A stretch of 17,342 nt of DNA from Promethearchaeota archaeon (GTDB taxonomy: Archaea > Asgardarchaeota > Lokiarchaeia > Sigyniarchaeales > SOKP01), in the NCBI GenBank assembly GCA_016926735.1, contig JAFGOA010000017.1, positions 1-17,342 on the forward strand. The letters are read 5' to 3'. Numbering within the stretch: position 1 is the stretch's first letter; every line of letters begins with the position of its first letter. A model generated the notes under the pieces. The model saw only the letters and a program-made list of their open reading frames with translations. It had not been told where the DNA came from and did not search any database. Shown here piece after piece: positions 898 to 17,342 of the stretch. The position numbers and the translations under genes were made by a program.

Positions 898-930
898 TTT
901 TTTCACATAGATATTTTTAAAATTATTTAT

Positions 931-1368: not shown

Positions 1369-4300
1369 ATGCAAAATTTAAAAATAAATAAGATTACAGC
1401 AAAAATATTAATGATATTACTATTTTTCAATATAATTTCAAATTTAATTTTCAATCCACTAACATCTTTTAAAAATTCTGAGAAGAATGATTCAGAAAAT
1501 ATTTTGAGAATATCAACAGATAGCGGAGGAGGATATATTATGAATACTGATGCATCATATTCATGGATTGAAATTAATGAAACTGGAATATTAATGGATG
1601 AAATATCAGATGTTGATTCTACTGAATTTGAAAGCATTGAATTTTCTACATGGAACTTTACTTTTTATAATATGATATATGACAGACTTGATGTTAGTAA
1701 TAGGGGATTTATGATTTTTCCTGAAGATGACGGTGGATCATTTCCAATAGATATTCCAAATATATACTCTATAAATGAGGATTGTGTTGCTTTATTTGCA
1801 GATTGGATTGTGACCTCAGAGAGTGAAGGAGGCGGAGGAATGATATACTATCAATTTTTATCTTCCCCAAACAGGTTAGTTATTGAATATAAAGATGTAT
1901 ATAATTCAGACGATCCTGATTATGAATATGTTGGCTCTTTTGAAGTAATTTTTCTTGAATCAGGAGATATAAAATTTCAATATAAAAATATAGAGAATAT
2001 ATCTGAGGACCCAGTAGTAGTAGGATTAGACCATGGAGATACATTAAACTATAATTTTTATGATGGATTTAATCAAAGTGTTTTACCTTTAAGTGAACTA
2101 GCAATTGAATTTACATTTAATGAAATGATTGATTTTAACTATTCATTGAATTTAGCCATTGATGAGGAATATTCTTGGATTGTTACCACGATAAATTATG
2201 ATAAATTGGATTTATTATTTGGTACTTCATGGGAAGCTAAATATGGATTATTTCCTGATCCTATACGTGGACAAAAAACAAATATTACTATAACTTCAAT
2301 TGAAGAAGATTCTTCTAATTGGAAAATTAATTATACTATCTGGGATTGGCATCATAGATTTACAGAATCTTTATTATATGTTGATATGGTAGAGAATTCA
2401 ATAATCTATAATAAAAATCCTTCAGACTATAATCAAATACATAATCTGACAAACTTATTCCCTCTATTTCTTCCAACACCTTCATATTGGTATCTTAAAG
2501 GTGCTAATTTATCTCAATATTATACGCAAATTTTAAGAAATATAGAGACATCTCACTCATCAAGCATCTATTCTTATGATTATGAAGATATGGTAGAATT
2601 ATCCCATAAGAGAGATATAACAATCAGTAGTCATGATTTAAGTATTTATGAAAATGCTTTATATACATCTGAGGGAATATTGCATTCTCTTCATTTTAGT
2701 TATGCAAACCATACTGATTATAAAAATGATGGTATTGTTTTTTCGATGGAAATGGTTACACCACAACATTTAATAAACCATACTTTAGAAGCGGATGTAA
2801 ATAATGAATTTTCATGGATTGTAACTGATATTAATAGCAATAAATTGGATTTTTTCTATGGAACAGATTGGGGGAAATCAATTGGATTAATATCGAATCC
2901 AATAAAAGGTCAAAAAAATAAAATAAATGTTACTGATATGAATATAAATTCTACTCATATGGAAATACGTTATGATCAATGGGATTGGATAAATAGATTG
3001 GAGTCATTTTCAGAATCATATCTTCAAAGTAATACTACAGGTTATAAACGAGATCCATTTAATTATAGTGAATCTTATAATATACCTTCTAATTTTCTAC
3101 CATTTGTACCGAATTACGCAGATATTTACTTTAAATATTGCTATATGGGCGTACAAATGGATTATCCTGATCCCCCCGATATTGATGATGATGACCAATC
3201 AATTACAATATATCAATCCGAATGGAAAAATATAACAGGGCATATTATTACCATTACTAAAAGGTCAGAGTATAATTTATCTGGAGTTTTAGATGAATTC
3301 TCAATAAAATGGAGAAATGATACCTCTCATGAAAGTGAAATAATATTTCAGATGGAAAATGCTCTTCCTCTACTTAGCAGCGTTTCTCTGGGATTTGAAG
3401 TTAATGATGAATTTTCTTGGATCGTCTCTGAAGTTAATAATACTTTTTTGGAATCCTATTTAGGGTCAGATTGGGAAAATATATTTGGTTTACCTCTAAA
3501 TCCTACACAATATAGCAAAACCAAAATAAATATAACAAATATTGCTGAAAATGAAACATATTGGAAGGTAAATTATTCAATGTGGGATTGGATAGATCGT
3601 TCAAATGATTTTGATCCATTACCTGAAAACATTGATTCCTTGAATTTTAGAACTGAACCATTTAATTACACAAATCCACACAATTTTACTAACATTATAC
3701 CTTTATTTCTTCCTAATCCTACTGATTTATACGTTCAATATGGAAATCTTGATGATAGTCTATATTCATTTGGATCTGGGGGTATGAGTGGTCTTATATT
3801 TAACACTATTTTTGGCATGTATCTTAATCCATATGATAATAGCAAAACTCTATCATTCAGACTTGACAAAGATGATGATAGAATCTATGGATATGCTGAA
3901 TATAATTCACTTGGTTTTTTAAAACATTTTTATATAGAGAGTAGAGATCCATATACAGATGACCCAATTACAGTTTTTAGCATAATAAACTATTTTGAAG
4001 GACCAAAACCCTCATATGTTAAAATAAATGAAAGTGAGATTTATGAATATAATATTTATCTAAATGAGGAAATCGCACCAGAATATTTTATCGGTACAAA
4101 TTTTCCTGAAAAAATAATAATTTCAATTGAGTATATTGGTGGGAATGATCCATTAAATAACGAAACTACTATAATATATCATCTATCTTTTTTATGGAAT
4201 GGATCTATTGTATATTTTGGTTTAATATATAACATTCTTTGTCAAGATCTTACAGATAATAATCAGTTCTACAATATCAATAATTATTTTGTAAATCCAG

Positions 4301-4902
4301 ATACAGATTGGAGTCAAATTGAGTCAGTAATTGAACTTATACTTGATAATGAGGATTTTACTTTTGAAGCATTCAGTAATGGTTACCAATTTTCTATTAG
4401 TAGTGGAGATTATAATATTACAAGTGATTACCGATATACTTCTCAAGGAATATTGAATATAGCAACTATATCTATTAATGATCAAATACTTATGACATAT
4501 CAATTGAATACTTCTGAAATAATTGATGAAATTGATCCTGAATGGGTTATTACGCCTTCAGATCAAAAAATTAAATTTGGAGATAATTTTAATTATATTG
4601 TAGAGGCATTTGATGCATCTGGAATTCATCATTATGATATTAATGATACTGAGAATTTCAATATAGGTCAGAATACAGGTTTAATTACAAATACTATATC
4701 TCTTGCTGTTGGTGAATACTGGTTAGAAATATATGCATTTGATACTTATGGTAATAATTGTACTGCAATAATTAAAATAACTATAGAAGAGAAACCAAAA
4801 TCTAATATTCCTGGATATGAAATTATGACAATATTTACAGTAACATCAATTTCTTTGGTAATCCTCCTCTTAGTTAAAAAAAAAAAGGTAATTCCTAAGT
4901 AA
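1369..4902 (+). CDS. Large cell-surface glycoprotein: signal peptide, NIDO-like beta domain, three ~200-aa repeats, Ig/cadherin-like domain, Loki-CTERM-type anchor
   Basis: N-terminal hydrophobic segment; many N-x-S/T sequons; repeated E(Y/F)SWIV...G(T/S)xW...WDW...P; C-terminal NIPGYEIMTIFTVTSISLVILLLVKKKK. Domain names are by resemblance. Confidence 0.85.
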   Translation: MQNLKINKITAKILMILLFFNIISNLIFNPLTSFKNSEKNDSENILRISTDSGGGYIMNTDASYSWIEINETGILMDEISDVDSTEFESIEFSTWNFTFYNMIYDRLDVSNRGFMIFPEDDGGSFPIDIPNIYSINEDCVALFADWIVTSESEGGGGMIYYQFLSSPNRLVIEYKDVYNSDDPDYEYVGSFEVIFLESGDIKFQYKNIENISEDPVVVGLDHGDTLNYNFYDGFNQSVLPLSELAIEFTFNEMIDFNYSLNLAIDEEYSWIVTTINYDKLDLLFGTSWEAKYGLFPDPIRGQKTNITITSIEEDSSNWKINYTIWDWHHRFTESLLYVDMVENSIIYNKNPSDYNQIHNLTNLFPLFLPTPSYWYLKGANLSQYYTQILRNIETSHSSSIYSYDYEDMVELSHKRDITISSHDLSIYENALYTSEGILHSLHFSYANHTDYKNDGIVFSMEMVTPQHLINHTLEADVNNEFSWIVTDINSNKLDFFYGTDWGKSIGLISNPIKGQKNKINVTDMNINSTHMEIRYDQWDWINRLESFSESYLQSNTTGYKRDPFNYSESYNIPSNFLPFVPNYADIYFKYCYMGVQMDYPDPPDIDDDDQSITIYQSEWKNITGHIITITKRSEYNLSGVLDEFSIKWRNDTSHESEIIFQMENALPLLSSVSLGFEVNDEFSWIVSEVNNTFLESYLGSDWENIFGLPLNPTQYSKTKINITNIAENETYWKVNYSMWDWIDRSNDFDPLPENIDSLNFRTEPFNYTNPHNFTNIIPLFLPNPTDLYVQYGNLDDSLYSFGSGGMSGLIFNTIFGMYLNPYDNSKTLSFRLDKDDDRIYGYAEYNSLGFLKHFYIESRDPYTDDPITVFSIINYFEGPKPSYVKINESEIYEYNIYLNEEIAPEYFIGTNFPEKIIISIEYIGGNDPLNNETTIIYHLSFLWNGSIVYFGLIYNILCQDLTDNNQFYNINNYFVNPDTDWSQIESVIELILDNEDFTFEAFSNGYQFSISSGDYNITSDYRYTSQGILNIATISINDQILMTYQLNTSEIIDEIDPEWVITPSDQKIKFGDNFNYIVEAFDASGIHHYDINDTENFNIGQNTGLITNTISLAVGEYWLEIYAFDTYGNNCTAIIKITIEEKPKSNIPGYEIMTIFTVTSISLVILLLVKKKKVIPK
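2143..4010 (+). repeat. Three tandem intragenic protein repeats (~201-213 aa)
   Basis: The Trp of SWIV falls at 2176, 2815 and 3418 (spacings 639 and 603 nt). Shared motifs: SWIV, FGTSW/YGTDW/LGSDW, P..GQK, WDW, P.(D/N)Y, FPLFLP/LPFVP/IPLFLP. Boundaries approximate. Confidence 0.9.
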
Positions 4903-4904
4903 TA

Positions 4905-4914
4905 TTTTTTTTTT
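4905..4914 (+). terminator. Oligo-T tract, likely archaeal intrinsic terminator
   Basis: T10 immediately after the 4902 stop, between convergent genes. Confidence 0.5.
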
Positions 4915-4995
4915 CTCGTATACTATAATAAAAATATCTTTTTCTTTTTTTATATTGATTCATCGATAATAGAAATTATATAAATAGTCACATAA

Positions 4996-5958
4996 TTAAT
5001 TATAACTATCCGATTTTAGTGTCGTATTTGATCTAAAATGTAAAAAATCTCTAATTACGTACCCATCATTTTCAAATTTCAGAGCATGTAGTCCACAATT
5101 GCTTCCAATAAGATTCTCCTCCAACTCTCCAATACTAAGGATTGTCTCAAATCCAATATCTTTAAGAGAATCAATTATTTGTTTAACATATTTTAAATCA
5201 TTCAGATTAACAAAAGATTGAAATTGATTCTCAATAACAGATCGAGTTGGATTTAATGGTGTAAGTTTTATAATAAATTTCTTTGGATTAAATAATTCAC
5301 TAATAACATCTTTATCGATAGGATTATATTTATTAGCGGCGAAATTAAGTGTTATTTTTCTATCCTTTCCTATTATAAAATCTTCTCCATATTCAGCAAT
5401 TTCTTTTAAAGACCATTTAGGATAAGGAATAATTTGATCTCTTAATTTCTCATCAGTCGTATGTAATGAAAATTGCATCTGAAATTGATATTTTGAATAT
5501 ATAATATGTTTTATTTCCATTAATTCGGCCATAAATTCTTTTGCTTTCCTTGGAGCAATGGTGGAGATACAAGGTATTAAACCTGGTGCATCATATCTAT
5601 ATGGAAGTTGTTTCAATACCTCTAACACATTTGGATTTAATGTTGGTTCTCCCATTCTAGCAAATTGTATTTTAAATTTAGGAATAGAAATTTTTTTCTC
5701 AGGATATCTGTTTAAAACCATATAATCAATTTGATTAAATATATCATGTGTAGAAAGATTTCCCTTAAAATATTTTCCTGCATCGCAGATTGAGCATTTT
5801 ACAGGACATCCATACATTGTAGAAATAATTAAAACCCATTTTTCTTCTCTTGAATGTGGTGGTTGAATAGATTCTATAAATTCAAGATATTTATTTTCAA
5901 TTTCTCCAATATAAAGAATAGCTAATTCTTCATAACCATATTTTTTAACAATTTCCAT
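4996..5958 (-). CDS. RlmN/Cfr-like (class A) radical SAM protein
   Basis: ISTMYGCPVKCSICDAG (CxxxCxxC), ARMGEP (MGMGEP-like), FSLH and C-terminal GSNCGL (AACGQL-like). True RlmN activity is not assumed. Confidence 0.8.
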   Translation of the reverse strand: MEIVKKYGYEELAILYIGEIENKYLEFIESIQPPHSREEKWVLIISTMYGCPVKCSICDAGKYFKGNLSTHDIFNQIDYMVLNRYPEKKISIPKFKIQFARMGEPTLNPNVLEVLKQLPYRYDAPGLIPCISTIAPRKAKEFMAELMEIKHIIYSKYQFQMQFSLHTTDEKLRDQIIPYPKWSLKEIAEYGEDFIIGKDRKITLNFAANKYNPIDKDVISELFNPKKFIIKLTPLNPTRSVIENQFQSFVNLNDLKYVKQIIDSLKDIGFETILSIGELEENLIGSNCGLHALKFENDGYVIRDFLHFRSNTTLKSDSYN

Positions 5959-6211
5959 AATATACTCAATTTAAATAATAATTTCAAAAATATCAATAAT
6001 ATACTAATTAATTTTTACAATGGTATTTATTTTATTGAACCAGAAATTCTAATTACATATAAAATATCTCTATTTATAGAGATTTTAAATATTAAATTTA
6101 ATTAAATAAAGATTTATTCCTTCATAAGTCTAATTGCATAAAAATATAATTCTTAAAAAAAAGAAAGTTATTAATTAGAAAAATAATCGTGTTAACTTTA
6201 AATCTAATAAT

Positions 6212-6502
6212 TTATTTTCTCATTTTTGTCCATTTATTAAGATAGAAAAACCCTATAACAATTAGAGTAATTAGAACAATTCCTATAATTCCAGCTAAAT
6301 AATTATTTTCTATCCATGACAAGATAGGGGTCCAAATATCCCCTTCACCCTCATGACCAACATCTTCTAATACTCTTTCTAATCCATCAGGATTTTCTGA
6401 TAAAAATCCAAGACTATACCCTATACTCAACATTAAAATTAAAACTATAATAGTAGAAAAAAGAGTTATCAATGGCCATTTATATTCCTTTAATTTTTCC
6501 AT
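6212..6502 (-). CDS. PDGLE-domain membrane protein (NikN/CbiN-like accessory subunit of a Ni/Co ECF transporter)
   Basis: SENPDGLERV motif between two TM helices; starts 3 nt after cbiM. Confidence 0.9.
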   Translation of the reverse strand: MEKLKEYKWPLITLFSTIIVLILMLSIGYSLGFLSENPDGLERVLEDVGHEGEGDIWTPILSWIENNYLAGIIGIVLITLIVIGFFYLNKWTKMRK

Positions 6503-6505
6503 TCT

Positions 6506-7177
6506 TTAGTTCACTCCGAAAAATTTTTGAGTTGCTATAAAATTGGGTTTGGTTTTTAGTATATAATAAATTATTAACGCTGAGATCACTGCTTCTCCTA
6601 TTCCAATTATTGAATGCCAAATTACCATTGCCGGTACAACAAAATCATATGTACCAATTCCTGAAAGTACTAATTGTGTTCCGCATATCGCCGAAGCAAG
6701 TAATACAGATAAATATGCTCCTATTCCAGTAGATAAAGTTATATTAAGTGTATTATTCATTTTAGTTTTATTTAATATTTTTTTTAATCCAACAACAATG
6801 AAAAAACCAATAATTCCGCAAATAATCCCCATATTGAAGGTATTTGCGCTGAGTGCTAAAATTCCTCCATCTCCAAATGTTGTTTGAACTAGTAAAACCA
6901 AAAATAACACAAATAAAGATGCCCAAGGACCTAATATAACAGCCACCAACGTTCCTCCAATTAAGTGACCCGAAGTTCCTCCAGGAATAGGATAATTAAC
7001 AAATTGAAATGCAAAAATGACTGCTGCTAATACACCAATATAAGGAATATATTTTTCAGAATCTTCCGATTTAAAAATCGTTCCCATTTTAAAATATGCA
7101 ATAATAAACATGATAATGCATATTATCCAAAAAATTCCTAAAATAGTAGGGCTCAATAATCCATCACTTATGTGCAT
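6506..7177 (-). CDS. cbiM: Ni/Co ECF transporter S component CbiM/NikM
   Basis: MHISDGLL N-terminus and GGTSGHLIGG motif. Start moved from the track's TTG at 7186 to ATG at 7177, because this family binds metal via the free Met1 amine and His2. Confidence 0.93.
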   Translation of the reverse strand: MHISDGLLSPTILGIFWIICIIMFIIAYFKMGTIFKSEDSEKYIPYIGVLAAVIFAFQFVNYPIPGGTSGHLIGGTLVAVILGPWASLFVLFLVLLVQTTFGDGGILALSANTFNMGIICGIIGFFIVVGLKKILNKTKMNNTLNITLSTGIGAYLSVLLASAICGTQLVLSGIGTYDFVVPAMVIWHSIIGIGEAVISALIIYYILKTKPNFIATQKFFGVN

Positions 7178-7226
7178 AAAGATCAACTATACCAAATTTT
7201 AATCATTCATCGTATATTTTTATTAA

Positions 7227-7291
7227 TATGAATTATTTAAAATTTAGTATGATATTCTATAAGAATATTACTATTTTATAAAAAAGTATGA
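7227..7291. promoter_or_regulatory. Candidate NikR-type operator array in the divergent cbiM/cbiQ intergenic region
   Basis: GTATGA at 7247-7252 and 7286-7291 (E. coli NikR half-site); TATGA-N16-TATGA (7227/7248) and TATTA-N16-TATGA (7266/7287); inverted repeat ATATTCT-ata-AGAATAT at 7252-7268. The AT-rich background lowers confidence. Confidence 0.4.
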
Positions 7292-7450
7292 ATACCTCTT
7301 ATCTTTAATATAGTTATATATAGATTGTTTTTTTTTTTTAAAATTAGGAAATTCAGATATTAAATAAATAAAAGTAAATCTTATATTGGGCTATTAATTC
7401 CAAATCAAGAAATATTATTATATTTAACCAAATTATAAATAAAGATATAA

Positions 7451-8254
7451 ATGGAATCATTCCTACCATTTAGACATGAAAATGAGTACACTTATTTATC
7501 AGAAATTCATCCTACAGTTCGATTCATTATTCCCTTTATTTTAATTATTCCGTTTTTAATAATTAAAGATATATATCTTACAATTACAATTCTTTTTATT
7601 AATTTATTGCTTTTATTTATATTCCAGTTGAAATTAAAAAGAATTCTCTTAAGAATCAAGAAAATTTTTATTTTAATTATAATATTAGTTATTTTTTTAC
7701 CCCTATACTTAGGGAAAACCATCCTTTTTCAATTAAATATTGGTGTAATTATAAATATTTATAAAGAAGGGTTTGATTTGGCAATTCTTCTATTTTTACG
7801 AATTTTTTCATCTATTTTTATATTTATGACTTTTTTTTCTTCTTTAACCTATTCGGAATTTATAGAAGCAATAACTAAACTACGGGTTCCCTTGATTTTT
7901 ACTGGTTCTCTAATTATATTATTGCATTATATTCCGATATTAGCATATTCAAATAGACGAATTTTAAGTGCCCAAGAATTAAGAGGAAAAAAAATTACAT
8001 CTTATTGGTTAAAATTAAAAACTCATGCATTTATTTTGGGAAAAACAATTCTGATAAATATGGATCGTAGTGAACAATTATATGAAAGTCTTAAAATGAG
8101 AGGATTTTCTGGAAAAATAACATTTATTCCCAAACGTATTAAATTTCTGGATATTTTAATTCTGTTTGGATTTTTGTTTTTGATTTTTCTTTTGGTGTAT
8201 TTTATTAATTTAAAAGAATTATATTTAGGAGTTGCAGATATATTAAATCTATAG
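7451..8254 (+). CDS. cbiQ: ECF transporter transmembrane T component CbiQ/NikQ
   Basis: IHP.VR N-terminus, multiple TM helices, AQELRG and SLKMRGF coupling-helix motifs. Confidence 0.92.
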   Translation: MESFLPFRHENEYTYLSEIHPTVRFIIPFILIIPFLIIKDIYLTITILFINLLLLFIFQLKLKRILLRIKKIFILIIILVIFLPLYLGKTILFQLNIGVIINIYKEGFDLAILLFLRIFSSIFIFMTFFSSLTYSEFIEAITKLRVPLIFTGSLIILLHYIPILAYSNRRILSAQELRGKKITSYWLKLKTHAFILGKTILINMDRSEQLYESLKMRGFSGKITFIPKRIKFLDILILFGFLFLIFLLVYFINLKELYLGVADILNL

Positions 8255-9000
8255 AGGTAAAAGAATTAGAATTTTCATATAATACAGACTTTTCTATAAA
8301 TAATATCTCATTTAATATTGAAAATAACTCTATTTTTGCACTTTTAGGTAATAATGGTTCCGGAAAAACAACACTACTGAGGTTATTAGTTGGGCTTTTA
8401 AAACCAAGTTCAGGTGAAATAAGAATATTTGGTGAGACATTAACAAGAGATAAAACAAAACTATGGAACATAAGAAAAAAAATTGGATTTTTATTTCAGA
8501 ATCCAGATGATCAACTCTTTGCTCCAACAATTCAAGAAGATATTGGTTTTGGTGCTCGTAATCTTAAATTAGATGAAGATGAAGTTATGAAAAGGGTCGA
8601 TTGGGCGCTTCAATCTGTTAATTTATTAGAATATAGGAATTATTCACCATTCAACCTATCTTGGGGACAAAAGAAAAGAGCAGCTTTAGCAGGATTATTA
8701 GTTATGAAACCAAAATTATTGATTTTAGATGAACCTTTTGCAAATCTCGATTTTAAATCCATTTATAAGCATTTAGAGATAATCGAAAAGCTAAGAAAGG
8801 AGGAGAAAATGACAATATTATTTACATCTCATAATTTATTCTTTATAGAACATTGGGCGGATGAGATATTGGTATTAGATAAAGGCAATGCAATTTATAG
8901 TGGTAACTGCACAGAAGGATTAAATAATTTAAAAGTTCGAGATTTAATTGGTTCATTCGATGAAATCCGTGATCTCATACTTAAAAATAAATCGAAATAA
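8242..9000 (+). CDS. cbiO: ECF transporter ATPase CbiO/NikO (full length; probable non-canonical ATT start)
   Basis: The frame of the 8587 ORF is open back to TAA at 8206-8208 and encodes IKSIEVKELEFSY...GNNGSGKTT (Walker A)...FQNPDDQ (Q-loop), then LSWGQKKR and LLILDEP. No ATG/GTG/TTG lies upstream of Walker A. AGGAG at 8227-8231 precedes ATT at 8242. The start position is uncertain. Confidence 0.9.
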   Translation: MKSIEVKELEFSYNTDFSINNISFNIENNSIFALLGNNGSGKTTLLRLLVGLLKPSSGEIRIFGETLTRDKTKLWNIRKKIGFLFQNPDDQLFAPTIQEDIGFGARNLKLDEDEVMKRVDWALQSVNLLEYRNYSPFNLSWGQKKRAALAGLLVMKPKLLILDEPFANLDFKSIYKHLEIIEKLRKEEKMTILFTSHNLFFIEHWADEILVLDKGNAIYSGNCTEGLNNLKVRDLIGSFDEIRDLILKNKSK

Positions 9001-9073
9001 AATACTTTATAATTTCTTATTTTTATTAGTATTTCAATAAGATATATAGTAAATAAAAAAGTATTCACAGAAA

Positions 9074-9535
9074 ATGCATTTAGTTCTTACTTATTTTGAC
9101 AGGTTAAGGGGACCAAGTATATTTTTATCATATCCAGAAATAGAAATTGAAGAAGATATAATTAATAAACTTATAAAATTCTTTGATTTAGACATTAATG
9201 AGACTTTTTTTGAAATTGTGCTCATCAATAAAAATAAGAAAATTATAAATCTTTATATTGAAATTCCTTCAGAATGGGCACGTGGAAATAAAGAAATGGT
9301 AATGCTCTCTTTAATAATGAAAAAAACATATCCAAGCGAACTACTTTACGCATTTATTGTTGAGACTTCCCATAAAATCCTTAAAACAAACAATGTTTAT
9401 AAGGCATTTTATAAAGATGATGATCATTTTAATGATAATATTGAAGTATTTTTGGCTCATGAACAAATTCGCTTAATTCTTTTTGATAGCCTTAATGCCT
9501 TAATTTCTAGATTAGAATCAAAAAAAAAAGTATAA
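9074..9535 (+). CDS. Asgard longin/uDENN-like domain protein
   Basis: LVLTYFDRLRGP..F..YP N-terminal pattern and IPSEWARG.KEMVMLSLI resemble the FD...GP and ARG motifs of NPRL2/folliculin/DENN-type longin domains. Confidence 0.6.
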   Translation: MHLVLTYFDRLRGPSIFLSYPEIEIEEDIINKLIKFFDLDINETFFEIVLINKNKKIINLYIEIPSEWARGNKEMVMLSLIMKKTYPSELLYAFIVETSHKILKTNNVYKAFYKDDDHFNDNIEVFLAHEQIRLILFDSLNALISRLESKKKV

Positions 9536-9618
9536 TCAAAAAATTATTGTAGAAAATATTTCTTTAGTTTAAATTAGATAATGATAGTTTTGAAAAAAGT
9601 TTATTATTCTTTATTGAT

Positions 9619-9628
9619 ATATTTAAAT
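9619..9628 (+). promoter_or_regulatory. Probable TATA box for the H/ACA RNA
   Basis: ATATTTAAAT; TTTAAA at 9622-9627 ends ~25 nt upstream of the first paired base (9652). Confidence 0.5.
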
Positions 9629-9651
9629 TGGGAAAATAATGATGGAATAAC

Positions 9652-9712
9652 TGCGTTATCGAGGGCATATATGACCCTATATGATTATATGTGCAAAGAC
9701 GCGCAAACATCT
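9652..9712 (+). ncRNA. H/ACA hairpin 1; predicted target 23S U2496 (E. coli numbering)
   Basis: Lower stem 9652-57/9698-9703; upper stem GCAUAUA 9665-71/UAUAUGU 9686-92; K-loop U9672.U9685, G9673.A9684, A9674.G9683; pocket AUCGAGG/GCAAA; 14 nt to ACA. Confidence 0.92.
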
Positions 9713-9736
9713 GGAGTTTTTATAGTCAAAAATTTA

Positions 9737-9821
9737 GCCCTGGTAAAAATGGGCTCTTGGTTGAGCATAAGGAGGAATCCAAGCGATGATACTAGGGCAG
9801 TAACCCAGGCAGGGTACATGA
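9737..9821 (+). ncRNA. H/ACA hairpin 2; tentative target 23S U2586 (E. coli numbering)
   Basis: Lower stem GCCCUG 9737-42/CAGGGU 9810-15 directly before ACA; stem UCUUGGU 9755-61/ACUAGGG 9791-97; K-turn UGA 9762-64 / GAU bulge 9785-87 / GAU 9788-90 with a GC/GC C-stem; apical GGA-GGAA-UCC (GNRA tetraloop). Confidence 0.85.
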
Positions 9822-9849
9822 TTATGCCCAATAAAGCATAGAAATTAAA

Positions 9850-9929
9850 GCCTAGCACGAGAGAACATATTTGATTTTAAGGTATCTCCTTGGAATGATA
9901 ATTTTGTGTTAGTGTTTTAGGCAACAGTC
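9850..9929 (+). ncRNA. H/ACA hairpin 3; target not identified
   Basis: Lower stem GCCUAG 9850-55/UUAGGC 9917-22; upper stem AACAUA 9864-69/UGUGUU 9905-10; K-turn-like UUUGA 9870-74 / AAU-GAUAA 9894-9901; apical UUAAGG/CCUUGG; ACA 13-14 nt from the upper stem base. Confidence 0.8.
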
Positions 9930-10000
9930 TATGCCCCTATCTTTATATGATTTTGATATTTTTAAAGATTTAAATCTTGTAATTCATAAAAAAAGAGAGA

Positions 10001-10465
10001 TTAAAGAAAACTTATTGAATCAGAATTAAATAATTCTTTTAATTCTTTATTCACAACATTCTCACTTACATCTAAATAGCTTTCTAATACTTTTTCTAAT
10101 TTTGGGGCCCATTTTTTCATCACTGCTCTGATAAATCCAATATTAACATTTTTCTCAGTAGCAATGCATAAAACACCTCTACCGATCTTCATAGAAAAGA
10201 TCATTCCTTTATTATACTCTGTTATTTGGAGATCAATATTTCCATAACCTAATATTACACCTTGCTCTTCTCCAGCCATAAAGACTGCTCCACCAATTGC
10301 ACCGATTTTTTCAACGGAAGTATTGTCATCGGATAATTTAAATTTGGATTGACTTAACAAGGTAATACCAGTTTCATCAATTATGATAGTATATTTAACA
10401 CCAGCAGTACTATCTATTATTGATTTTAAAATCTTTTTTAGAACAATTTCGTCTTCATAGCTCAT
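10001..10465 (-). CDS. Roadblock/LC7 (MglB/LAMTOR-like) domain protein
   Basis: IIIDETGI..S, EKIGAIGGAVF..GE, ITEYNKG.IF, LCIAT...VNIG.IR follows the roadblock pattern. Confidence 0.85.
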   Translation of the reverse strand: MSYEDEIVLKKILKSIIDSTAGVKYTIIIDETGITLLSQSKFKLSDDNTSVEKIGAIGGAVFMAGEEQGVILGYGNIDLQITEYNKGMIFSMKIGRGVLCIATEKNVNIGFIRAVMKKWAPKLEKVLESYLDVSENVVNKELKELFNSDSISFL

Positions 10466-10535
10466 TTTTATCCATCAATCCAATTATACTTTAAATATAA
10501 TATATATTTTTCTCTATAATGATTTATATAAAAGA

Positions 10536-10550
10536 TATATAAATTTCTTT
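10536..10550 (-). promoter_or_regulatory. BRE-TATA promoter for the roadblock gene
   Basis: The minus strand reads AAAGAAA-TTTATATA, ~70 nt upstream of the ATG at 10465. Confidence 0.5.
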
Positions 10551-10690
10551 AGAAAAATCTAAAATTTATACCCTTTACCTGTATAAATAAAATAAAAATT
10601 AGTATATAAATAATTAAGTATCAAATCTTTTGTTCTTATAATTATAACGAAAATCTATGATTAAGATATAAGGTTTTACTAATTTTAGGT

Positions 10691-11038
10691 TTAGAATAAT
10701 ATTTGTCTTTTAATTATGGATTTAAGTGTTTTATATCCATTAATATTTTGATTTGGTCTTTTTAAAAATATTACCAATTTAATAGAATCATCCTCATTTA
10801 ACGTTCTAACAATTTTAATGTAATTTTCATTATCTACAAATTTTCGTTGTTTTGCAATTGCTTCTAATGCGAGTTCTTGTTCTTTAAATGGAAATTTATC
10901 TGTTATTTTAGAAACAATTGGAAATCCGTGATAATCAGCAATTACACCAGCAGCAAAATTAGGGAAATTTTGACAAATATTATTAAGAAAATAATCTACT
11001 TGATCCTGACTAACTAAATTTTCACTAATAAAAATCAC
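10691..11038 (-). CDS. Divergent roadblock/profilin-fold-like small protein
   Basis: Helix followed by FAAGVIADYHGFPIVS (roadblock-like beta-hairpin) and ELALEAI helix; GTG start; shorter than its neighbour. Confidence 0.55.
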   Translation of the reverse strand: MIFISENLVSQDQVDYFLNNICQNFPNFAAGVIADYHGFPIVSKITDKFPFKEQELALEAIAKQRKFVDNENYIKIVRTLNEDDSIKLVIFLKRPNQNINGYKTLKSIIKRQILF

Positions 11039-11196
11039 TTTCAGTTATAATTAAGCAATAATTATTTGAAAAAAAAAGATTATTTTAAAGATGTATAACA
11101 TCAAGATGATATAGTGATAAATCGGTATTGGAAAAATAATTCAAATAGATAAAGTAAAATAAAAAGAAGTAAAGAAAAATGAGCTTTTTTTGTGAA

Positions 11197-12180
11197 TTAT
11201 TTTTCAGAATGTTTATTTTTTAGACTCACAATATCGATATTTAAATTCTCAATAAGTTCACTAAAACGATTTCTAACAGTAACCTCGGTTACTTGTGAAA
11301 CTTGAGCAATTCTTTTTTGAGTTCTTTTTTCTCTTGTAATTAAAGTACTTGCATATATAGCAGCGGCACACAATCCTGTTGGACCTCTTCCGGATGTTAA
11401 ACCTCTTTCAGAAGCCATCTTTATTATCATTTTTGCAATCTTATGGCACTCTGCTGAGAGATCTAATTCAGAGATAAAACGTGTTAAAAAGTCAGAAGGT
11501 TTTGTAGGATTTAAACTTAGATCAAGCTCATTTGAGATAAATCTAAATGATCTTGCTATTTCTTTCTTATCTACACGTGCTATATCTGCTATTTCAAAAA
11601 GAGTTCTTGGTATTTTGTACATACGGCAAGCAGCATAAAGACTAGCAGCAGCTACTCCTTCAATACTTCTTCCTCGAATAAGATGTTTTTCTACAGCGTT
11701 TCTATAGATTTTTGCGGAGCATTCCCTTAGATTTTTTTGTAGCTCTAAGCTTGATGCCATTCTATCTAATTCACTAAGAGCAAATGTGAGATTTCTTTCT
11801 GTAGCATCAGAAATCCTAATTCTACTTTGCCATTTTCTTAATCGATGGATTTGACCTCTTAATTTTACAGGTATCTCTTTACCATAGCTATCTCTATTTT
11901 TCCAATCGATCATTGTACTAAGACCTTTATCATGAATCATGTATGTCATAGGAGCTCCAGTTCGTGTTCTTTTCTTTTTTTGGTCAGAATCAAAAGCTCG
12001 CCACTCTGGACCTCTATCAATAGAATTTTCTGAATGTACAAGTCCGCAATTTTCACATATAATCAAACCTCGATTATGGTCAAAAAATACATTTTTTCCA
12101 CATTCATTACAAATATTTTTTTCTGTAGTAATTTTATCAGAGATGAATTTTTCTTCTTTCCAACTTGAAATATTAAACAC
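11197..12180 (-). CDS. tfb: Transcription initiation factor IIB (TFB)
   Basis: Zn ribbon CNEC...CENCG, B-reader GPEWRAF, HDKGLST, two cyclin repeats (RGRSIE, SGRGP), VTEVTVRNR. Confidence 0.98.
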   Translation of the reverse strand: MFNISSWKEEKFISDKITTEKNICNECGKNVFFDHNRGLIICENCGLVHSENSIDRGPEWRAFDSDQKKKRTRTGAPMTYMIHDKGLSTMIDWKNRDSYGKEIPVKLRGQIHRLRKWQSRIRISDATERNLTFALSELDRMASSLELQKNLRECSAKIYRNAVEKHLIRGRSIEGVAAASLYAACRMYKIPRTLFEIADIARVDKKEIARSFRFISNELDLSLNPTKPSDFLTRFISELDLSAECHKIAKMIIKMASERGLTSGRGPTGLCAAAIYASTLITREKRTQKRIAQVSQVTEVTVRNRFSELIENLNIDIVSLKNKHSEK

Positions 12181-12220
12181 CTAATAAGGTTTTGATAGAT
12201 TATATTTTTGTGGGTAAATT

Positions 12221-12469
12221 TTATTTAAATTTAGCATAAAAGTTATGGTTAGGATTTATTTCTTGATTTGGTTTAGTTTTTACAGAAATAAAGGGTGTAT
12301 CAATGGGTCCAAAAATATCTTTTACAAAACCAATATTATTATATTCTTCATTATATATTGGTTTTTTTAAGACTTTTTCAAGATTTTTATTCCATTTTGT
12401 AGCTCTAAAAATTTGATGTTTTTTAGCAGAAATACCTATATAATGTAAATCCAATTTAACCCAATTCAA
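12221..12469 (-). CDS. gar1: H/ACA RNP subunit Gar1/Naf1
   Basis: IGFVKDIFGPIDTPFISVK motif; gar1-tfb adjacency is common in archaea; TTG start. Confidence 0.9.
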   Translation of the reverse strand: MNWVKLDLHYIGISAKKHQIFRATKWNKNLEKVLKKPIYNEEYNNIGFVKDIFGPIDTPFISVKTKPNQEINPNHNFYAKFK

Positions 12470-12552
12470 TAAAAATCCCTCTTTAATGTTATTTTGTGAA
12501 ATATATTATAACATTAAGTATAATTTCTTAAACTAATTTAATTTATTGTCTA

Positions 12553-12560
12553 TATATAAA
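12553..12560 (-). promoter_or_regulatory. TATA box upstream of gar1-tfb
   Basis: The minus strand reads TTTATATA, ~85 nt upstream of the gar1 start. Confidence 0.4.
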
Positions 12561-12634
12561 TCTTAAGGTTTTATCTCTTCTCTCAGTTTACCTAAAAAGG
12601 AAAGGTTTTTTTAACCGTATTTTCTAAAAGTAAT

Positions 12635-13720
12635 TTAGTTTTGGATTTTTTGAATATCATATTTTTTTTTACAGATACATTCTGATTCAGATTTGTTTAA
12701 TTCTTCAAGATCTTGATTTAAAATAAAATTTTTTAGTAACTTGTTCATATTTTCATTACAATCTTTTGAAGAACAATTATGAATTCCTCTTTTGCTTCCT
12801 GATCCAGAAGGATCACACAATATTCGAACTTTTTTAAAATCTTCTTTTTTTAATGCTTGTCTAAAAGATTCAAATAAAGAATAAAACCATGGAGGTCTAT
12901 ATTTTTTTTGTTTCCATAAAGATTCTACAAGAGACCCTTTTTGAATATTACATGGATTTATCGAAATTGTATTAATATTACTTTCTGTAAGTTTTTTAAT
13001 TGATTTTATGCAATCATCTATACTTCCTTGTTCATTTAGAAAAGGAGGTTTAAAAAGAAGATAAACTTTTATTCCTATATCCATCTCATGAATTAATTTT
13101 ACTGCTTTCATAAACTTATCAAAAGTGAGGTTTTTATTAATATATTTATTTCTAATATAATCATCCACACTCTCAAGTCCTATACCTAACTCTATATACT
13201 TATTTTCAAGATAATTCAGCATTTGTTTTAATAAATTCTTATTTATGAATTCTACTCTCGTTTCAAAAGTAATTTCTTTAATATTAGGGATTTCAGAAAT
13301 TCTTTTATATATATGTATTCTGGTTTCCTCACTGATTTCTTTACTGTCAAAGAAGCTTCCAGAATTAAAGATTTTTAATGCGTAATTATTTGTATCACTA
13401 TTTATTTCATCGATTTTTTGGTCTAAAGCATAATCAAATTGATTAATAATTTGTTGAGGATCCACATAGTCGATATTAGCATCTTCAACATACCCACACA
13501 TCGAACAACCTGAATTTTCTAGAGCCCAACAACATCCCCTAGTCCTAAGAATAATAGTGATTTCTTTTCCAATCTCATCTAAGAGTCTTTCTTCTTTAAT
13601 CCAAAAACTTACAGGTTTATTTAACTGATCTATAGTATATTTTTTTTTATAATTAAGAGATTTCTTTCTTAATTTGGCAATTTCCTCACTTAAGCAATTC
13701 TTATTATTTCTTGATTTCAT
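12635..13720 (-). CDS. raSEA: Archaeosine biosynthesis radical SAM protein RaSEA
   Basis: IILRTRGCCWA...GCSMCGY (widely spaced Cys motif), KIFNSGSFFD, YLLFKPPFL, SINPCNIQKGS, YRPPW, GSKRGIHNC. Overlaps arcS. ATG at 13720 preferred to TTG at 13729. Confidence 0.92.
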   Translation of the reverse strand: MKSRNNKNCLSEEIAKLRKKSLNYKKKYTIDQLNKPVSFWIKEERLLDEIGKEITIILRTRGCCWALENSGCSMCGYVEDANIDYVDPQQIINQFDYALDQKIDEINSDTNNYALKIFNSGSFFDSKEISEETRIHIYKRISEIPNIKEITFETRVEFINKNLLKQMLNYLENKYIELGIGLESVDDYIRNKYINKNLTFDKFMKAVKLIHEMDIGIKVYLLFKPPFLNEQGSIDDCIKSIKKLTESNINTISINPCNIQKGSLVESLWKQKKYRPPWFYSLFESFRQALKKEDFKKVRILCDPSGSGSKRGIHNCSSKDCNENMNKLLKNFILNQDLEELNKSESECICKKKYDIQKIQN

Positions 13721-15788
13721 ATAAATCAACTACTCTCCCAAAATTAGTATTTTTAACATATTGAGAACTCACAATCATATTTCCCACTGCTATAATATTT
13801 TCTTTACTTTTATCAAAAATGCACACATTATCATTAGGATGTATATTTGGTTTGATTTCTAATATTCCTGGTTTAAATAAAGTATTTCCATTTATTTTAA
13901 TGCCATCAAATATTAAATAGTTTGAGAAGTTCTTCGCAAAAGCAATTTTTTTAGCTCCTTTTATAGTAAGTTCTATTTTCCCAGAGGAGATTTCGAATTT
14001 TCCGATAATATCTTTTTTATCCGAATGAAAAATCTCAATCTTTGTTTTTAACCTATTTTTTCTGTAGTATACCTCTTTATTAATCAAGAGATTACCAATA
14101 CCACGTCCAAATTGATAATCAATAATTTTTCGAAATTTTCTTATCCACATTTTCGAAATAGACCTTTCTTTTTCTACACCTTCATCTATAATATATAAAG
14201 TTTTAAATGAATGTATTAGGTTATTTAGATGATCTAACGATTCATTTGAAGTGGTATTTTCTTTAATATCTGTGTAGATAAATTTGTTTTCTAATGCTTT
14301 TTCAGCATTTTGAGCAATATCAACATATTTCCCCTCTAAATGACATATAATAGGAATATTTTTATCATATTTATTAATTAATCTTATCAGCATTTCGGAT
14401 GTTATTTTAATCTCATCCTCATCCCAATCACCCGTAACTGGAATATCATATGATTTAGCAGGGTAAATATCTTCTAATTGTCTAGGAATTATCCCTAAAG
14501 GAGATGTTAGAATAAATTCTTGAAATTCAGGGTATTCTGGATGATTTCTTAAGATTTTTAGAAATTTTTGATGTGATTTTGATTCTGAATAAGGTTTTTT
14601 TGCTGAACAAGGAAATAAAATAATCAATCTTGTTGATGGTTCAGGTGTAAAATTTTGAATAATATTATTTCTAAAATAATTAAAATCAGGACGATAATAA
14701 GATGAGGGTCCTAAACAATTAACTATTTTATTTTTTTGAATTATCTGAGAGAAATTTTCTGCAAAATTATAATAATCTTTATCATAAATCCTTAATAAGG
14801 ATATGAAATTTGGATTATTCATTGAAGATTTCTCAACAAAATTACGAAAATCTTCCGTATGTAGAAACTGGATAGTTTTATTCATATAATTTTTAATAGT
14901 TGAAAGATTGTGGTAGCATAATAAATCTATTTTTTCTGGAGATTTAGTATCTCCTATTAACTCTACCAACTTTCCTTTACAAGCTAAACAACTACAAGGA
15001 AGGTTTTTTATTTTGGTAAGGGGTAACAGAGTTTCTATAGAATCATATAAATTATGTGATGATATCACCAAGGAGTAAGAGCTATCGATCAAATCAAATC
15101 CAAAATAAATAAGGATAGGTAAATAATATGAGATTATTGTCCCTGAAATCATAAATACTAGATTACTATCAAGATTTTCTCTTAAATTTTTAATAACATC
15201 AATAATTCTTCTATAATAGGTGAGATTATCGAATAAATCAATGAAATTTAAAATTTTAATGTTTTTATTCTTTTTTATAAAAGATAAGTATAATTTTATC
15301 ATGTCAAAATCCTTAAATAATTTAATAGAAAGACCAAAATCAATTTTAGGATTATCTTTTAGTATTATTTCAACATTTTCTAAATAATTTTTAATCTCAT
15401 ATTCAGAGAAATTATTGTTTATAGATACTGTTGGAATGTTGAATGGAATTATTGGAATAATATTACTTTTAAAAAATAACTCATTTTTTTCATTCAATAT
15501 TTCATGAAATTTTGTTAACAATCCATAATAAGTATAGAGGAAAATTGATTCTCCAAACATCTTGTTTAAAATATCCTCTTTTAGATATTTTTCTTCTGAA
15601 ATCATAAAGATATCATGATATCCAAAGGAATCAATGAATTCTGCATTATTGGATAAAAATTGTTTAAAAGGAATGATAATATTTGGAGTATTAACAGATT
15701 TTTTTGTAGCATTATGAATCTTAATTTTACCAATTCTTGATAAATTTATCCTAGTTTTTATTAAATCAAAAAAAAAAACCATTTTCAA
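13704..15788 (-). CDS. arcS: Archaeosine synthase ArcS (TgtA2): degenerate TGT barrel, catalytic domain, PUA domain
   Basis: SRIGKI...TPN TGT-like start, LPCSCLAC...HN Zn site, PCSAKKPYSESKSH motif, TSPLGIIPRQLE..YP...YDIPVTGDW, DYQFG and C-terminal PUA. Start is TTG 15788 or ATG 15782. Confidence 0.93.
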   Translation of the reverse strand: MKMVFFFDLIKTRINLSRIGKIKIHNATKKSVNTPNIIIPFKQFLSNNAEFIDSFGYHDIFMISEEKYLKEDILNKMFGESIFLYTYYGLLTKFHEILNEKNELFFKSNIIPIIPFNIPTVSINNNFSEYEIKNYLENVEIILKDNPKIDFGLSIKLFKDFDMIKLYLSFIKKNKNIKILNFIDLFDNLTYYRRIIDVIKNLRENLDSNLVFMISGTIISYYLPILIYFGFDLIDSSYSLVISSHNLYDSIETLLPLTKIKNLPCSCLACKGKLVELIGDTKSPEKIDLLCYHNLSTIKNYMNKTIQFLHTEDFRNFVEKSSMNNPNFISLLRIYDKDYYNFAENFSQIIQKNKIVNCLGPSSYYRPDFNYFRNNIIQNFTPEPSTRLIILFPCSAKKPYSESKSHQKFLKILRNHPEYPEFQEFILTSPLGIIPRQLEDIYPAKSYDIPVTGDWDEDEIKITSEMLIRLINKYDKNIPIICHLEGKYVDIAQNAEKALENKFIYTDIKENTTSNESLDHLNNLIHSFKTLYIIDEGVEKERSISKMWIRKFRKIIDYQFGRGIGNLLINKEVYYRKNRLKTKIEIFHSDKKDIIGKFEISSGKIELTIKGAKKIAFAKNFSNYLIFDGIKINGNTLFKPGILEIKPNIHPNDNVCIFDKSKENIIAVGNMIVSSQYVKNTNFGRVVDLYEIKK

Positions 15789-15878
15789 ACAACATTAAGT
15801 TTAGATTTATTTATATCCAAGAAAATCTTGTACTGTGAAAAAATAATATTTGATCCTTATAAAACTAATCTTTCAAAA

Positions 15879-17144
15879 TTAATCCAAACTATCCTTTTTA
15901 TTTCGATCGATAAAAAAATCAGCGTTAAAGTTTGGAAACAATTTATTTTTATTTCCTTCCTTAAGACCATATATTAGACCTAAATCTTCTAATTTTCTAA
16001 TGTGATATTCAATAGTCTTTCTGTTAATATTGAGGTTCTCTGAAATTTTTGTATTCCAAATTCCTGGATCATCTTCTATTATTTTTAATATTTTTAAAGT
16101 AAATTCACTTTTCTGCAATTTAAGATCAATATTTGAGATTGGATTTTTCTCAATATATGGTAAATAAACCACATAATTTTCCATTGTTTGTTTCTTTATT
16201 ACTTTATAAACATTCAATATTTCAAGATGCCACACTAAATTTCCAGGATTTAAATTTGTTTTCCTAAGTAATTCATTAAAATGCATTCCTGGTGTTTCTA
16301 ATATTAAATCTATAATTTTATTTCGATTTTCATTTTCCAATACTTCATCTAAAGAAAGTCTGTGTACACCTTTCGGAAAAAATTGAGTTCTTTTTTTTAA
16401 TGTTCTTATGTATTCTTTTTTAGAAATAACACTAATTATTGAAATAATCGAAATTATTGAAATAGGAATTAATATTGATAATGTAATTATTAAAGATAAA
16501 TTAAAAGTAGTAATTTCTGTAGTTTTATAAATTGTTATATAATAATCTTTATTATTTTGAAGATTTTCTATTGATGCCTCTAAATAATTATATTCTAATC
16601 CGTTAATTTCATTTGTATCAACAAGTTTGAGATCTGTTTGATTTGTATAATAAGCAATTGAATATTTAGAGTTAGGTTCTAAACTCAATAAAGGGATTTT
16701 TATAAATTGAAATGATACTTTTGAAATAGTGTCATTTGTTTTAATTTTATAAGTTGTATTATAAAGAAAATCTAAACAATAATCATTATATCTTGAATTT
16801 TCTGGAAAATTATCTTTGAAATTATCCCAGTTAAAAAAAGCTGTAAAATTAAATTCTACAAAATTTGAAACACTAATATTAATCTTTAACTGTTTTGATT
16901 GTGTAGCTAATGCTAAAGAATCACATTTAATGTTTAAAAGCATAGATTCGTTAGATGAAATATTTAGGTTGAAAAAATTAGATCCCTCAATATAATAAAA
17001 ATTATATTCTTTATTAGGTAAAAGAGATGGTGATGAATCAATTGAGTATTGTTTGATATATTCAAGATCACAATAACCAATAGTGAAAAAAAGGAAGATT
17101 ATTGTATATATCTTCTTTTTTTTAAAAAACTTAACTCTAATCAT
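15879..17144 (-). CDS. Membrane-anchored transcriptional regulator with tandem winged-helix domains (COG3398-like)
   Basis: N-terminal hydrophobic segment, ~190-aa sequon-rich domain, TM (LSLIITLSILIPISIISIISIISVI), basic patch, then VLENENRNKI...PGMHFNEL...WHLEIL and DPGI...TIEYHIRKLEDLGLI. Confidence 0.85.
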   Translation of the reverse strand: MIRVKFFKKKKIYTIIFLFFTIGYCDLEYIKQYSIDSSPSLLPNKEYNFYYIEGSNFFNLNISSNESMLLNIKCDSLALATQSKQLKINISVSNFVEFNFTAFFNWDNFKDNFPENSRYNDYCLDFLYNTTYKIKTNDTISKVSFQFIKIPLLSLEPNSKYSIAYYTNQTDLKLVDTNEINGLEYNYLEASIENLQNNKDYYITIYKTTEITTFNLSLIITLSILIPISIISIISIISVISKKEYIRTLKKRTQFFPKGVHRLSLDEVLENENRNKIIDLILETPGMHFNELLRKTNLNPGNLVWHLEILNVYKVIKKQTMENYVVYLPYIEKNPISNIDLKLQKSEFTLKILKIIEDDPGIWNTKISENLNINRKTIEYHIRKLEDLGLIYGLKEGNKNKLFPNFNADFFIDRNKKDSLD

Positions 17145-17291
17145 ATTTCAACTTTAATTTTAACTTATTTATACTTTATATATATCAATCAGTTTTAAAA
17201 TATCGGGTATAATATTCACCGTTGCATAATATCAAAACAATTTGAAAATTTATTTTTTAAATGGCGAAATTTATACCTTATCCTTTTTAAA

Positions 17292-17342
17292 TTTTTTTTT
17301 TTTTTTTTTTTTATTAAATAAAAAAAAAATTAAAAAAAAAAA
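17292..17342. repeat. Low-complexity poly-T / poly-A tract at the window end
   Basis: About 21 T followed by A-runs; may be a terminator tract or a contig-end artefact. Confidence 0.6.

Follow-up and report, generated by a model that had tools for sequence, protein, structure and literature searches.

Hairpin 1, the first hairpin of a small RNA (sRNA) encoded by the Asgard archaeon Promethearchaeota archaeon (class Promethearchaeia, or Lokiarchaeia), is probably the first guide module of an archaeal box H/ACA sRNA of about 235 nucleotides (nt) that targets U2496 (Escherichia coli numbering) of 23S ribosomal RNA (rRNA). Its gene lies in contig JAFGOA010000017.1 of assembly GCA_016926735.1, of which positions 1-17,342 of the forward strand were analysed; "the window" denotes this whole stretch of 17,342 nt. 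The hairpin has the anatomy of an archaeal guide and stems that covary among relatives, its pocket has a unique match in the rRNA that was scanned, and the numbering of the matched site can be fixed on E. coli 23S rRNA. Genes for the protein partners are present in the genome, and the RNA is represented in RNA libraries. From these observations we infer that a ribonucleoprotein (RNP) assembles on hairpin 1 and that U2496 is converted to pseudouridine (Psi).

Anatomy and covariation of hairpin 1

The archaeal H/ACA hairpin plan, a lower stem and an upper stem separated by an unpaired pocket, is found in hairpin 1, and covariation backs all three helices of the hairpin. The parts of the hairpin are as follows.

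9652-9656, plus strand: 5' strand of the lower stem (P1), paired with 9701-9705; GCG/CGC, GCA/UGC and GGC/GCC covary
9657-9664, plus strand: 5' guide strand of the pocket, U-AUCGAGG, complementary to 23S CCUCGAU(G), E. coli 2498-2504(5)
9665-9671, plus strand: 5' strand of the upper stem (H2), paired with 9686-9692, from G9665.U9692 to A9671-U9686
9672-9685, plus strand: K-loop and presumed L7Ae site, with a U9672.U9685 mismatch, tandem G9673.A9684 and A9674.G9683 pairs, and the loop 9675-9682
9693-9697, plus strand: 3' guide strand GCAAA, of which G9693-A9696 pair with 23S UUGC (E. coli 2492-2495) and A9697 stands opposite C2491
9707-9709, plus strand: ACA (ANA) box, directly 3' of the lower stem and 14 nt after the upper stem

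The lower stem is made up of U9652-A9705, G9653-C9704, C9654-G9703, G9655-C9702 and U9656.G9701. An earlier note, made from the letters of the window, had described the pocket strands AUCGAGG (9658-9664) and GCAAA (9693-9697) and a 14-nt spacing to ACA, and these can be read directly in the sequence; the spacing is that between the last pair of the upper stem, G9665.U9692, and the box (9693-9706). The minimum-energy fold yields hairpin 1 with an unremarkable energy (z = -1.83; 10 of 200 shuffles reach an equal or better energy). The single sequence alone is little proof of hairpin 1, and it is the comparative evidence that shows more than chance.

Among 61 related genomes, a DNA search matched the sRNA region in 19, each a member of the window's own family, and the alignment of these 19 sequences covers the first 98 nt of the sRNA block. 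Using a covariance model of hairpin 1 and the enclosing K-turn built from this alignment, it has been possible to follow the sRNA gene through most genomes of the family, where it is present as a single copy (114 of 126), through 118 of the 151 genomes sampled from the class, and into 51 of 151 genomes in a sample of the phylum, where seven further families are reached. A second alignment, of 65 distinct sequences, was fitted to the covariance model and so leans towards the modelled structure. Among the 19 homologues, 92.4% of the pair cells are paired and 11 of the 21 pairs show compensatory changes; none of 500 column shuffles reaches the observed value, and slid controls are paired in 23-52%. 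On the 65 sequences the corresponding figures are 89.1% and 18 of 21. Compensatory changes are found in all four of the pairs scored in the lower stem (helix 3 of the model; 65 sequences) and in the upper stem (helix 5) at four of seven pairs on 19 sequences and six of seven on 65.

The pocket behaves otherwise. Over the 65 distinct rows GCA never changes and UCGAGG hardly does; the fourth letter of the 3' strand is mostly A, and position 9658 varies. Distant members, for example one with the lower stem GCCUUU/AAAGGC and the upper stem CUAGCC/GGCUAG, have stems that are wholly different and yet keep UCGAGG and GCAA(A/G), and the guide letters TCGAGG and GCA are retained while the stems change, across the class and in at least seven further families of the phylum. 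Unpaired letters that are fixed between covarying stems are the pattern expected of a guide for an invariant target. The K-loop letters UGA (9672-9674) and UGA (9682-9684) are invariant in the 19 sequences and common in the 65 rows, and L7Ae is predicted to bind there. The box of relatives is ACA, AAA or AUA in the 65 rows. Taken together, the anatomy, the covariation of the stems on 19 and 65 sequences and the fixed pocket letters give good support to the proposal of the earlier note that hairpin 1 is a guide.

The predicted target site in 23S rRNA

Marker genes put the completeness of the window's own genome at 99%; neither 23S nor 16S rRNA is assembled in it. The target was read from the rRNA of relatives, the closest being a genome of the same genus whose sRNA is 99% identical; 12 of 21 relatives examined have a 23S rRNA. 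Two 23S rRNAs, one from the same genus and one from the same family, and one 16S rRNA from the same family were scanned for a uridine with complementarity to one pocket strand on either side. Only one site combines 8 pairs or more with a minimum of 3 per side. This site has 4 + 8 pairs, one of them G.U, and its sequence in the same genus is CUUGC-UU-CCUCGAU. GCAA (9693-9696) pairs with UUGC and AUCGAGG with CCUCGAU, giving 4 + 7 = 11 Watson-Crick pairs, to which a U9657.G wobble may be added, and the two uridines between them are left unpaired.

The target had been predicted as UUUGC-PsiN-CCUCGAU with 12 Watson-Crick pairs and an unpaired UA. Of this target, UUGC and CCUCGAU are present in the same-genus 23S rRNA, and the first letter is C rather than U. 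A9697 thus faces a C, the count of pairs drops to 11, and the unpaired dinucleotide is UU. The literal string TTTGCTNCCTCGAT was also tried as a target and rejected. It has no match in the window's genome, and its 12 matches in 11 of 61 relatives were judged to be chance: none of the 10 loci fetched lies within rRNA, and a reversed-pattern control gave 4 matches. The string is absent from rRNA; at its first position the real 23S sequence has C.

The site is widely kept. Six full 23S copies, one of them from the same genus, read GGCUUGCUUCCUCGAUGUCGG; four more, belonging to other families and classes, have GGCUUGCU(U/A)CCUCGAUGUCGG. Overall, the 23S rRNA of these 10 relatives, drawn from several classes, reads UUGC-U(U/A)-CCUCGAUG. 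The letters of the pocket that are conserved across relatives, UCGAGG and GCA(A), give 9-10 pairs. In the E. coli K-12 gene rrlB (2904 nt) the motif GAUGUCGG begins at 2502, and an ungapped alignment with this neighbourhood of rrlB sets the target U opposite C2496, confirming the earlier placement of the target at a position that is C in E. coli.

Two further features of the 23S genes were seen. Upstream of about E. coli 2450 (before the motif AAACAGAG), the 23S rRNA of two genomes from other Asgard families bears no relation to the other copies, a pattern that suggests an intron or a split or permuted 23S rRNA at the peptidyl-transferase ring. Compared with E. coli, the same-genus 23S rRNA carries an insertion of about 45 nt directly downstream of CCUGGG (about E. 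coli 2525), which is probably an expansion segment.

Archaeal and eukaryotic counterparts

A guide for what is very likely the same site has been described in Euryarchaeota. Muller et al. 2008 (PMC2377435) report seven H/ACA sRNAs identified in Pyrococcus abyssi. They also report that motif 1 of Pab40 guides Psi2588 of P. abyssi 23S rRNA, which is detected in cellular rRNA and efficiently formed in vitro, and that motif 1 of Afu4 (A. fulgidus) and of Pf7 (P. furiosus) has the identical target. Psi2588 is termed there, already in 2008, conserved with eukaryotes, and P. abyssi 2678 is equated with a pseudouridine of Haloarcula.

The spacings of P. abyssi 2549-2588-2603 (39 and 15) are those of yeast 2826-2865-2880, and an offset of 92 puts P. 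abyssi 2549, 2554, 2585 and 2588 at E. coli 2457, 2462, 2493 and 2496, all within helix 89. The Haloarcula pseudouridine, which we take to be at E. coli 2586, gives the same offset of 92. Judged by the numbers in the paper and by helix counts rather than by alignment, Psi2588 is very likely the same site as E. coli 2496. If this holds, the guide-target pair is common to Thermococcales, Archaeoglobus and Asgard archaea and is not an Asgard-eukaryote trait. The earlier note had left room for a relationship peculiar to Asgard archaea and eukaryotes, which is not supported: motif 1 of Pab40, Pf7 and Afu4 had already been assigned to Psi2588 in that paper (PMC2377435). The guide-target relationship is neither new nor a special Asgard-eukaryote link, and hairpin 1 probably corresponds, on the Asgard side, to motif 1 in Pab40, Pf7 and Afu4.

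The likeness extends to architecture. Motif 1 of HgcG (RF00064; Pab40/Pf7/Pho40/Afu4) is likewise the first K-loop hairpin of a multi-hairpin archaeal H/ACA sRNA. Its pocket in Rfam is ..GCGAGG / GCGAC, with which hairpin 1 shares CGAGG and GC, and in both the GA pairs lie 8 positions from the pocket and the ACA box 14 nt beyond the upper stem. (According to Muller et al., active Pyrococcus guides have 14-15 nt to ACA [PMC2377435], as compared with 14 nt in hairpin 1.) There are also differences: the lower stem of hairpin 1 is AU-rich with 5-7 base pairs, whereas that of HgcG motif 1 has 8 G+C-rich pairs; the 3' guide is GCAAA rather than GCGAC; and nesting in a C/D-type K-turn is a feature of the Asgard hairpin 1 but no part of the HgcG model. 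The RF00064 model reaches 12.4 bits (E 0.36) against a gathering score of 77, below threshold, and aligns to hairpin 2, not hairpin 1. At gathering score Rfam has no match in the region, and at E <= 10 there is no match to an H/ACA snoRNA family, only a chance-level C/D match and this weak HgcG match on hairpin 2.

Among eukaryotic guides, snR46 and SNORA16A/B (ACA16) are like hairpin 1 in guiding the equivalent uridine of the peptidyl-transferase centre, in the case of hairpin 1 by prediction. An offset of 369 places yeast 2865 at E. coli 2496, and the E. coli numbering that we take to apply, C2501 and Um2552, agrees with this offset. The 'Ec' marks at 2870 and 2921 in a review table are consistent with it as well. 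A review table gives snR46 as the guide for yeast 25S Psi2865, and a second review locates Psi2865 in the peptidyl-transferase centre and describes it as conserved in human. In the same way, a 2026 paper has SNORA16A guiding human 28S Psi4412, which becomes hypo-modified upon knock-down of the host gene, and one table row of an Entamoeba snoRNA paper sets snR46 / 2865 beside ACA16 / 4412. The reviews, the 2026 paper and the table row confirm the two guides and the equivalence of yeast Psi2865 and human Psi4412 that the earlier note had stated. The eukaryotic RNAs have the hairpin-hinge-hairpin-tail form, an H box, no K-turn, and Nhp2 instead of L7Ae; the sRNA here is archaeal, with a K-loop and K-turns. 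No similarity between the two was detected, either in sequence or by Rfam models at E <= 10. On the strength of its predicted target, hairpin 1 is a functional counterpart of snR46/SNORA16; the earlier note had proposed it as their counterpart or ancestor.

Hairpin 1 adds the archaeal lineage nearest to eukaryotes to the known range of an archaeal-eukaryotic pseudouridylation site of helix 89 and its guide. With many Asgard families now joining Thermococcales, Archaeoglobus and eukaryotes, the distribution of the pair fits the pre-eukaryotic origin proposed already in 2008. Hairpin 1 also yields a prediction for cultured Promethearchaeia, namely pseudouridine at the equivalent of E. coli 2496.

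The sRNA gene and its putative K-turn clamp

Hairpin 1 is part of a longer conserved block, which aligns in the 19 family genomes from GGGAAA (9630) to GCCUARCACGAGAG (about 9864) within an interval between protein-coding frames (9536-10000).

9630-9864, plus strand: whole sRNA gene, about 235 nt, in which the K-turn-clamped H/ACA hairpin 1 is joined by a linker to hairpin 2 (H/ACA-like), with a conserved domain at the 3' end
9633-9637, plus strand: 5' strand of K-turn stem I, paired with 9716-9720
9639-9645, plus strand: C-box-like AUGAUGG, with G9641 and A9642 placed for sheared pairs with A9715 and G9714
9710-9720, plus strand: D-box-like UCUGGAG (GA at 9714-9715) followed by the 3' strand of stem I (9716-9720); recognised by covariation and kept in other Asgard classes
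9819-9864, plus strand: conserved 3' domain, comprising the tail GCCUAGCACGAGAG in addition to a short UAUGC/GCAUA hairpin, recognised by conservation and by the ends of RNA contigs

In metatranscriptomes from four studies, five contigs of 75-219 nt cover 9645-9864 and no other part of 9400-10100, stretches without contig cover being no evidence of silence there. Three contigs, from three studies, end at 9863/9864. This cover fits a stable small RNA. The plus strand is assigned to the sRNA because the G.U pairs of the covarying stems fit that strand only.

A C/D-type K-turn (9633-9646 and 9710-9720) encloses hairpin 1; both of its helices covary and persist in other Asgard classes. Stem I (helix 1 of the model) shows compensatory changes at two of five pairs on 19 sequences and four of five on 65. 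In the second helix G9644, G9645 and A9646 pair with U9712, C9711 and U9710, and a G-C pair becomes A-U in some sequences. The U, G and A of the C-box-like element are invariant in the 19 sequences, and AUGA(U/A/C)GG is found in 49 of the 65 distinct rows; in the D-box-like element A9715 is invariant and G9714 at least 90% conserved (19 sequences). The linkers, of 6 nt and 1-4 nt, leave no space for a methylation guide, so that the K-turn resembles a clamp and an additional site for L7Ae.

Composite C/D and H/ACA RNAs, such as Pab21 with snoR9 in Pyrococcus, likewise carry a C/D-type K-turn and an H/ACA module on one transcript. The eukaryotic U85 scaRNA is another composite of this kind. Unlike in these RNAs, the K-turn strands here directly flank the H/ACA hairpin, apparently forming a clamp and not a second guide. 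Pab21 occurs with or without its C/D motif, according to Muller et al. 2008 (PMC2377435). No description of a K-turn nested around an H/ACA hairpin turned up in the literature searches, none of which was aimed at that arrangement, and both the clamp and the antisense block of hairpin 2 described below may be new. They could inform how archaeal H/ACA RNPs engage pre-rRNA.

The region of the 3' domain (9819-9866) ends in the tail GCCUARCACGAGAGAAC. A third K-turn was considered for 9819-9864 and rejected by eye, since tandem GA geometry fits nowhere in it.

Hairpin 2

The second hairpin is H/ACA-like, and its conserved letters lie in two blocks.

9738-9818, plus strand: hairpin 2, with the lower stem 9738-9742/9810-9814, a K-turn GCGAUGA (9783-9789) with GA at 9763-9764, and ACA at 9816-9818
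9749-9758 and 9802-9808, plus strand: invariant blocks of hairpin 2 in the alignment of 19 family genomes, 5' AUGGGCUCUU and 3' AACCCAG, respectively

AUGGGCUCUU is complementary to 23S AAGAG(C/U)(C/U)CAU, E. coli 2468-2477, which lies in helix 89 and 20 nt upstream of the hairpin 1 site. The match comprises 10 Watson-Crick pairs in the 23S rRNA of two other classes, 9 in a genome for which both RNA and rRNA are known, and 10 pairs including two G.U in the window's own genus; shuffled blocks equal these matches in 1/300, 2/300 and 10/300 trials. This site has no U at the canonical UN position. The 3' block AACCCAG, 14 nt from ACA (9816-9818), is complementary to CUGGGUU immediately before E. 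coli U2586, a site that is the predicted target of motif 2 of Afu4 and Pf7 in Muller et al. (PMC2377435). A 5' guide matching the U2586 site was not found, and AUGGGCUCUU does not continue the pairing of AACCCAG; measured from the upper stem of hairpin 2, the distance to ACA would be 18-21 nt. Neither scans covering every pocket boundary nor scans of the conserved blocks gave a canonical UN target for hairpin 2 that is supported by relatives. The candidates that remain are the U at E. coli 2586, by the 3' block only, and helix 89 at 2468-2477, by the 5' block only.

Proposed mode of action and alternative explanations

In the proposed mechanism, L7Ae would bind the K-loop (9672-9685) and the open pocket would pair with the 3' strand of helix 89 in pre-23S rRNA, GCAA with UUGC (2492-2495) and AUCGAGG with CCUCGAU (2498-2504). 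U2496 and U2497 would be left unpaired 14 nt from ACA, a geometry in which Cbf5 would isomerise U2496 to pseudouridine.

Several observations weigh against this assignment. The first group concerns the pairing. Shuffled pocket strands reach 12 pairs in 32/2000 and 29/2000 trials, a rate of about 1.5% that is not vanishing. The 3' guide duplex has 4 base pairs here and 3 in relatives with GCAU; Muller et al. (PMC2377435) found that this duplex matters more than the 5' one, and that a 4-base-pair duplex with two G.U pairs is inactive. A9697 is unpaired opposite C despite its conservation, and the target comes from relatives because the window's genome lacks a 23S rRNA. The second group concerns structure. 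The lower stem is short, with 5 pairs here and 6-7 in relatives as against at least 7 in the search descriptor of Muller et al., and the upper stem has 7 standard pairs and a U.U before the GA pairs as against an H2 of 5-6 base pairs in the same source (PMC2377435). The latter mismatch may be a matter of counting convention, since 8 positions are also counted in the Rfam consensus of HgcG motif 1. The K-turn stem directly adjoins the ACA box, which might hinder Cbf5. In addition, the metatranscriptome contigs fix neither the ends nor the strand of the RNA, and RNA libraries can contain DNA. Pseudouridine maps or reports of H/ACA guides for Asgard archaea were not found in the literature library searched.

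One way to accommodate the short 3' duplex is to see the sRNA as a phylum-wide Asgard composite RNA, in which the H/ACA module sits in the K-turn clamp and AUGGGCUCUU of hairpin 2 lies on helix 89. This is a tentative proposal, and at present we consider it doubtful. If it were true, the resulting three-point grip on the 3' strand of helix 89 would offset a 3' guide duplex of 3-4 base pairs, and the RNP, besides being a modifier, might be a folding chaperone of the peptidyl-transferase centre.

The same features could be taken further, to an RNP that binds helix 89 mainly as a tether or chaperone in ribosome assembly, together with hairpin 2, so that pseudouridylation at 2496 is absent or incidental. 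The weak 3' duplex speaks for this, as does AUGGGCUCUU, whose complement lies 20 nt upstream on the same strand of helix 89 and offers no canonical U; in the 23S rRNA of two other classes all 10 of its pairs are Watson-Crick, which only 1/300 and 2/300 shuffles equal. However, the pocket has exactly the geometry of active guides, with UU unpaired and 14 nt to ACA, and the analogous Pyrococcus motif pseudouridylates what is very likely the same site. The hairpin 2 match is also not unique in the window's own genus, where a second 10-nt run with wobbles is found elsewhere in the 23S rRNA, and for one lineage shuffles equal the match in 10/300 trials. A role mainly as a tether is accordingly judged improbable.

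Less probable again is that hairpin 1 is a true guide but for another RNA, or for a neighbouring uridine such as U2497. The scan covered two 23S and one 16S rRNA of relatives together with 35 transfer RNAs (tRNAs) predicted in the window's genome, and the conserved A9697 is left unpaired by the present target; moreover, archaeal H/ACA motifs may guide up to three sites and tolerate UNN, according to Muller et al. (PMC2377435). Against this, no other site in the scanned rRNAs reaches even 8 pairs, no tRNA has a site with at least 3 + 3 pairs, and the 3.9-Mb genome contains a single copy of the conserved core motif, compared with about 1.9 expected by chance. As to U2497, the canonical rule picks the 5' U of the unpaired pair.

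Finally, there is very little likelihood that the hairpin is a structured L7Ae-binding element with another function, such as processing or stabilising a transcript, and that its complementarity to rRNA is fortuitous. In favour of this, Rfam gives no match at gathering score, the folding energy alone is not significant, and about 1.5% of shuffled guides match rRNA equally well. Against it, the pocket letters are invariant throughout the phylum while every stem changes, as expected under constraint from a conserved target; hairpin 1 has an ANA box, a K-loop and the spacing of 14 nt; and the pocket has the geometry of Pab40 motif 1, with CGAGG and GC in common.

Gene neighbourhood

The window's genome encodes the proteins that an H/ACA RNP guided by hairpin 1 would need in Cbf5 (TruB_N), Nop10, Gar1 and two L7Ae-family proteins, all above Pfam cut-offs. 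The gene for Gar1 lies in the window itself, beside that for TFB, and the two are 1.3-2.6 kb away from the sRNA gene.

11197-12180, minus strand: TFB gene, 327 amino acids, an open reading frame (ORF) beside Gar1
12221-12469, minus strand: Gar1 gene (H/ACA RNP subunit), 82 amino acids, Pfam Gar1 above cut-off, adjoining TFB

Of the 80 related TFB loci considered with 3-kb flanks, 62 have the sRNA no more than 3 kb away, sometimes in inverted orientation. Two small ORFs on the minus strand, 10001-10465 (154 amino acids) and 10691-11038 (115 amino acids), adjoin the sRNA gene and appear by eye to be roadblock/LC7-like.

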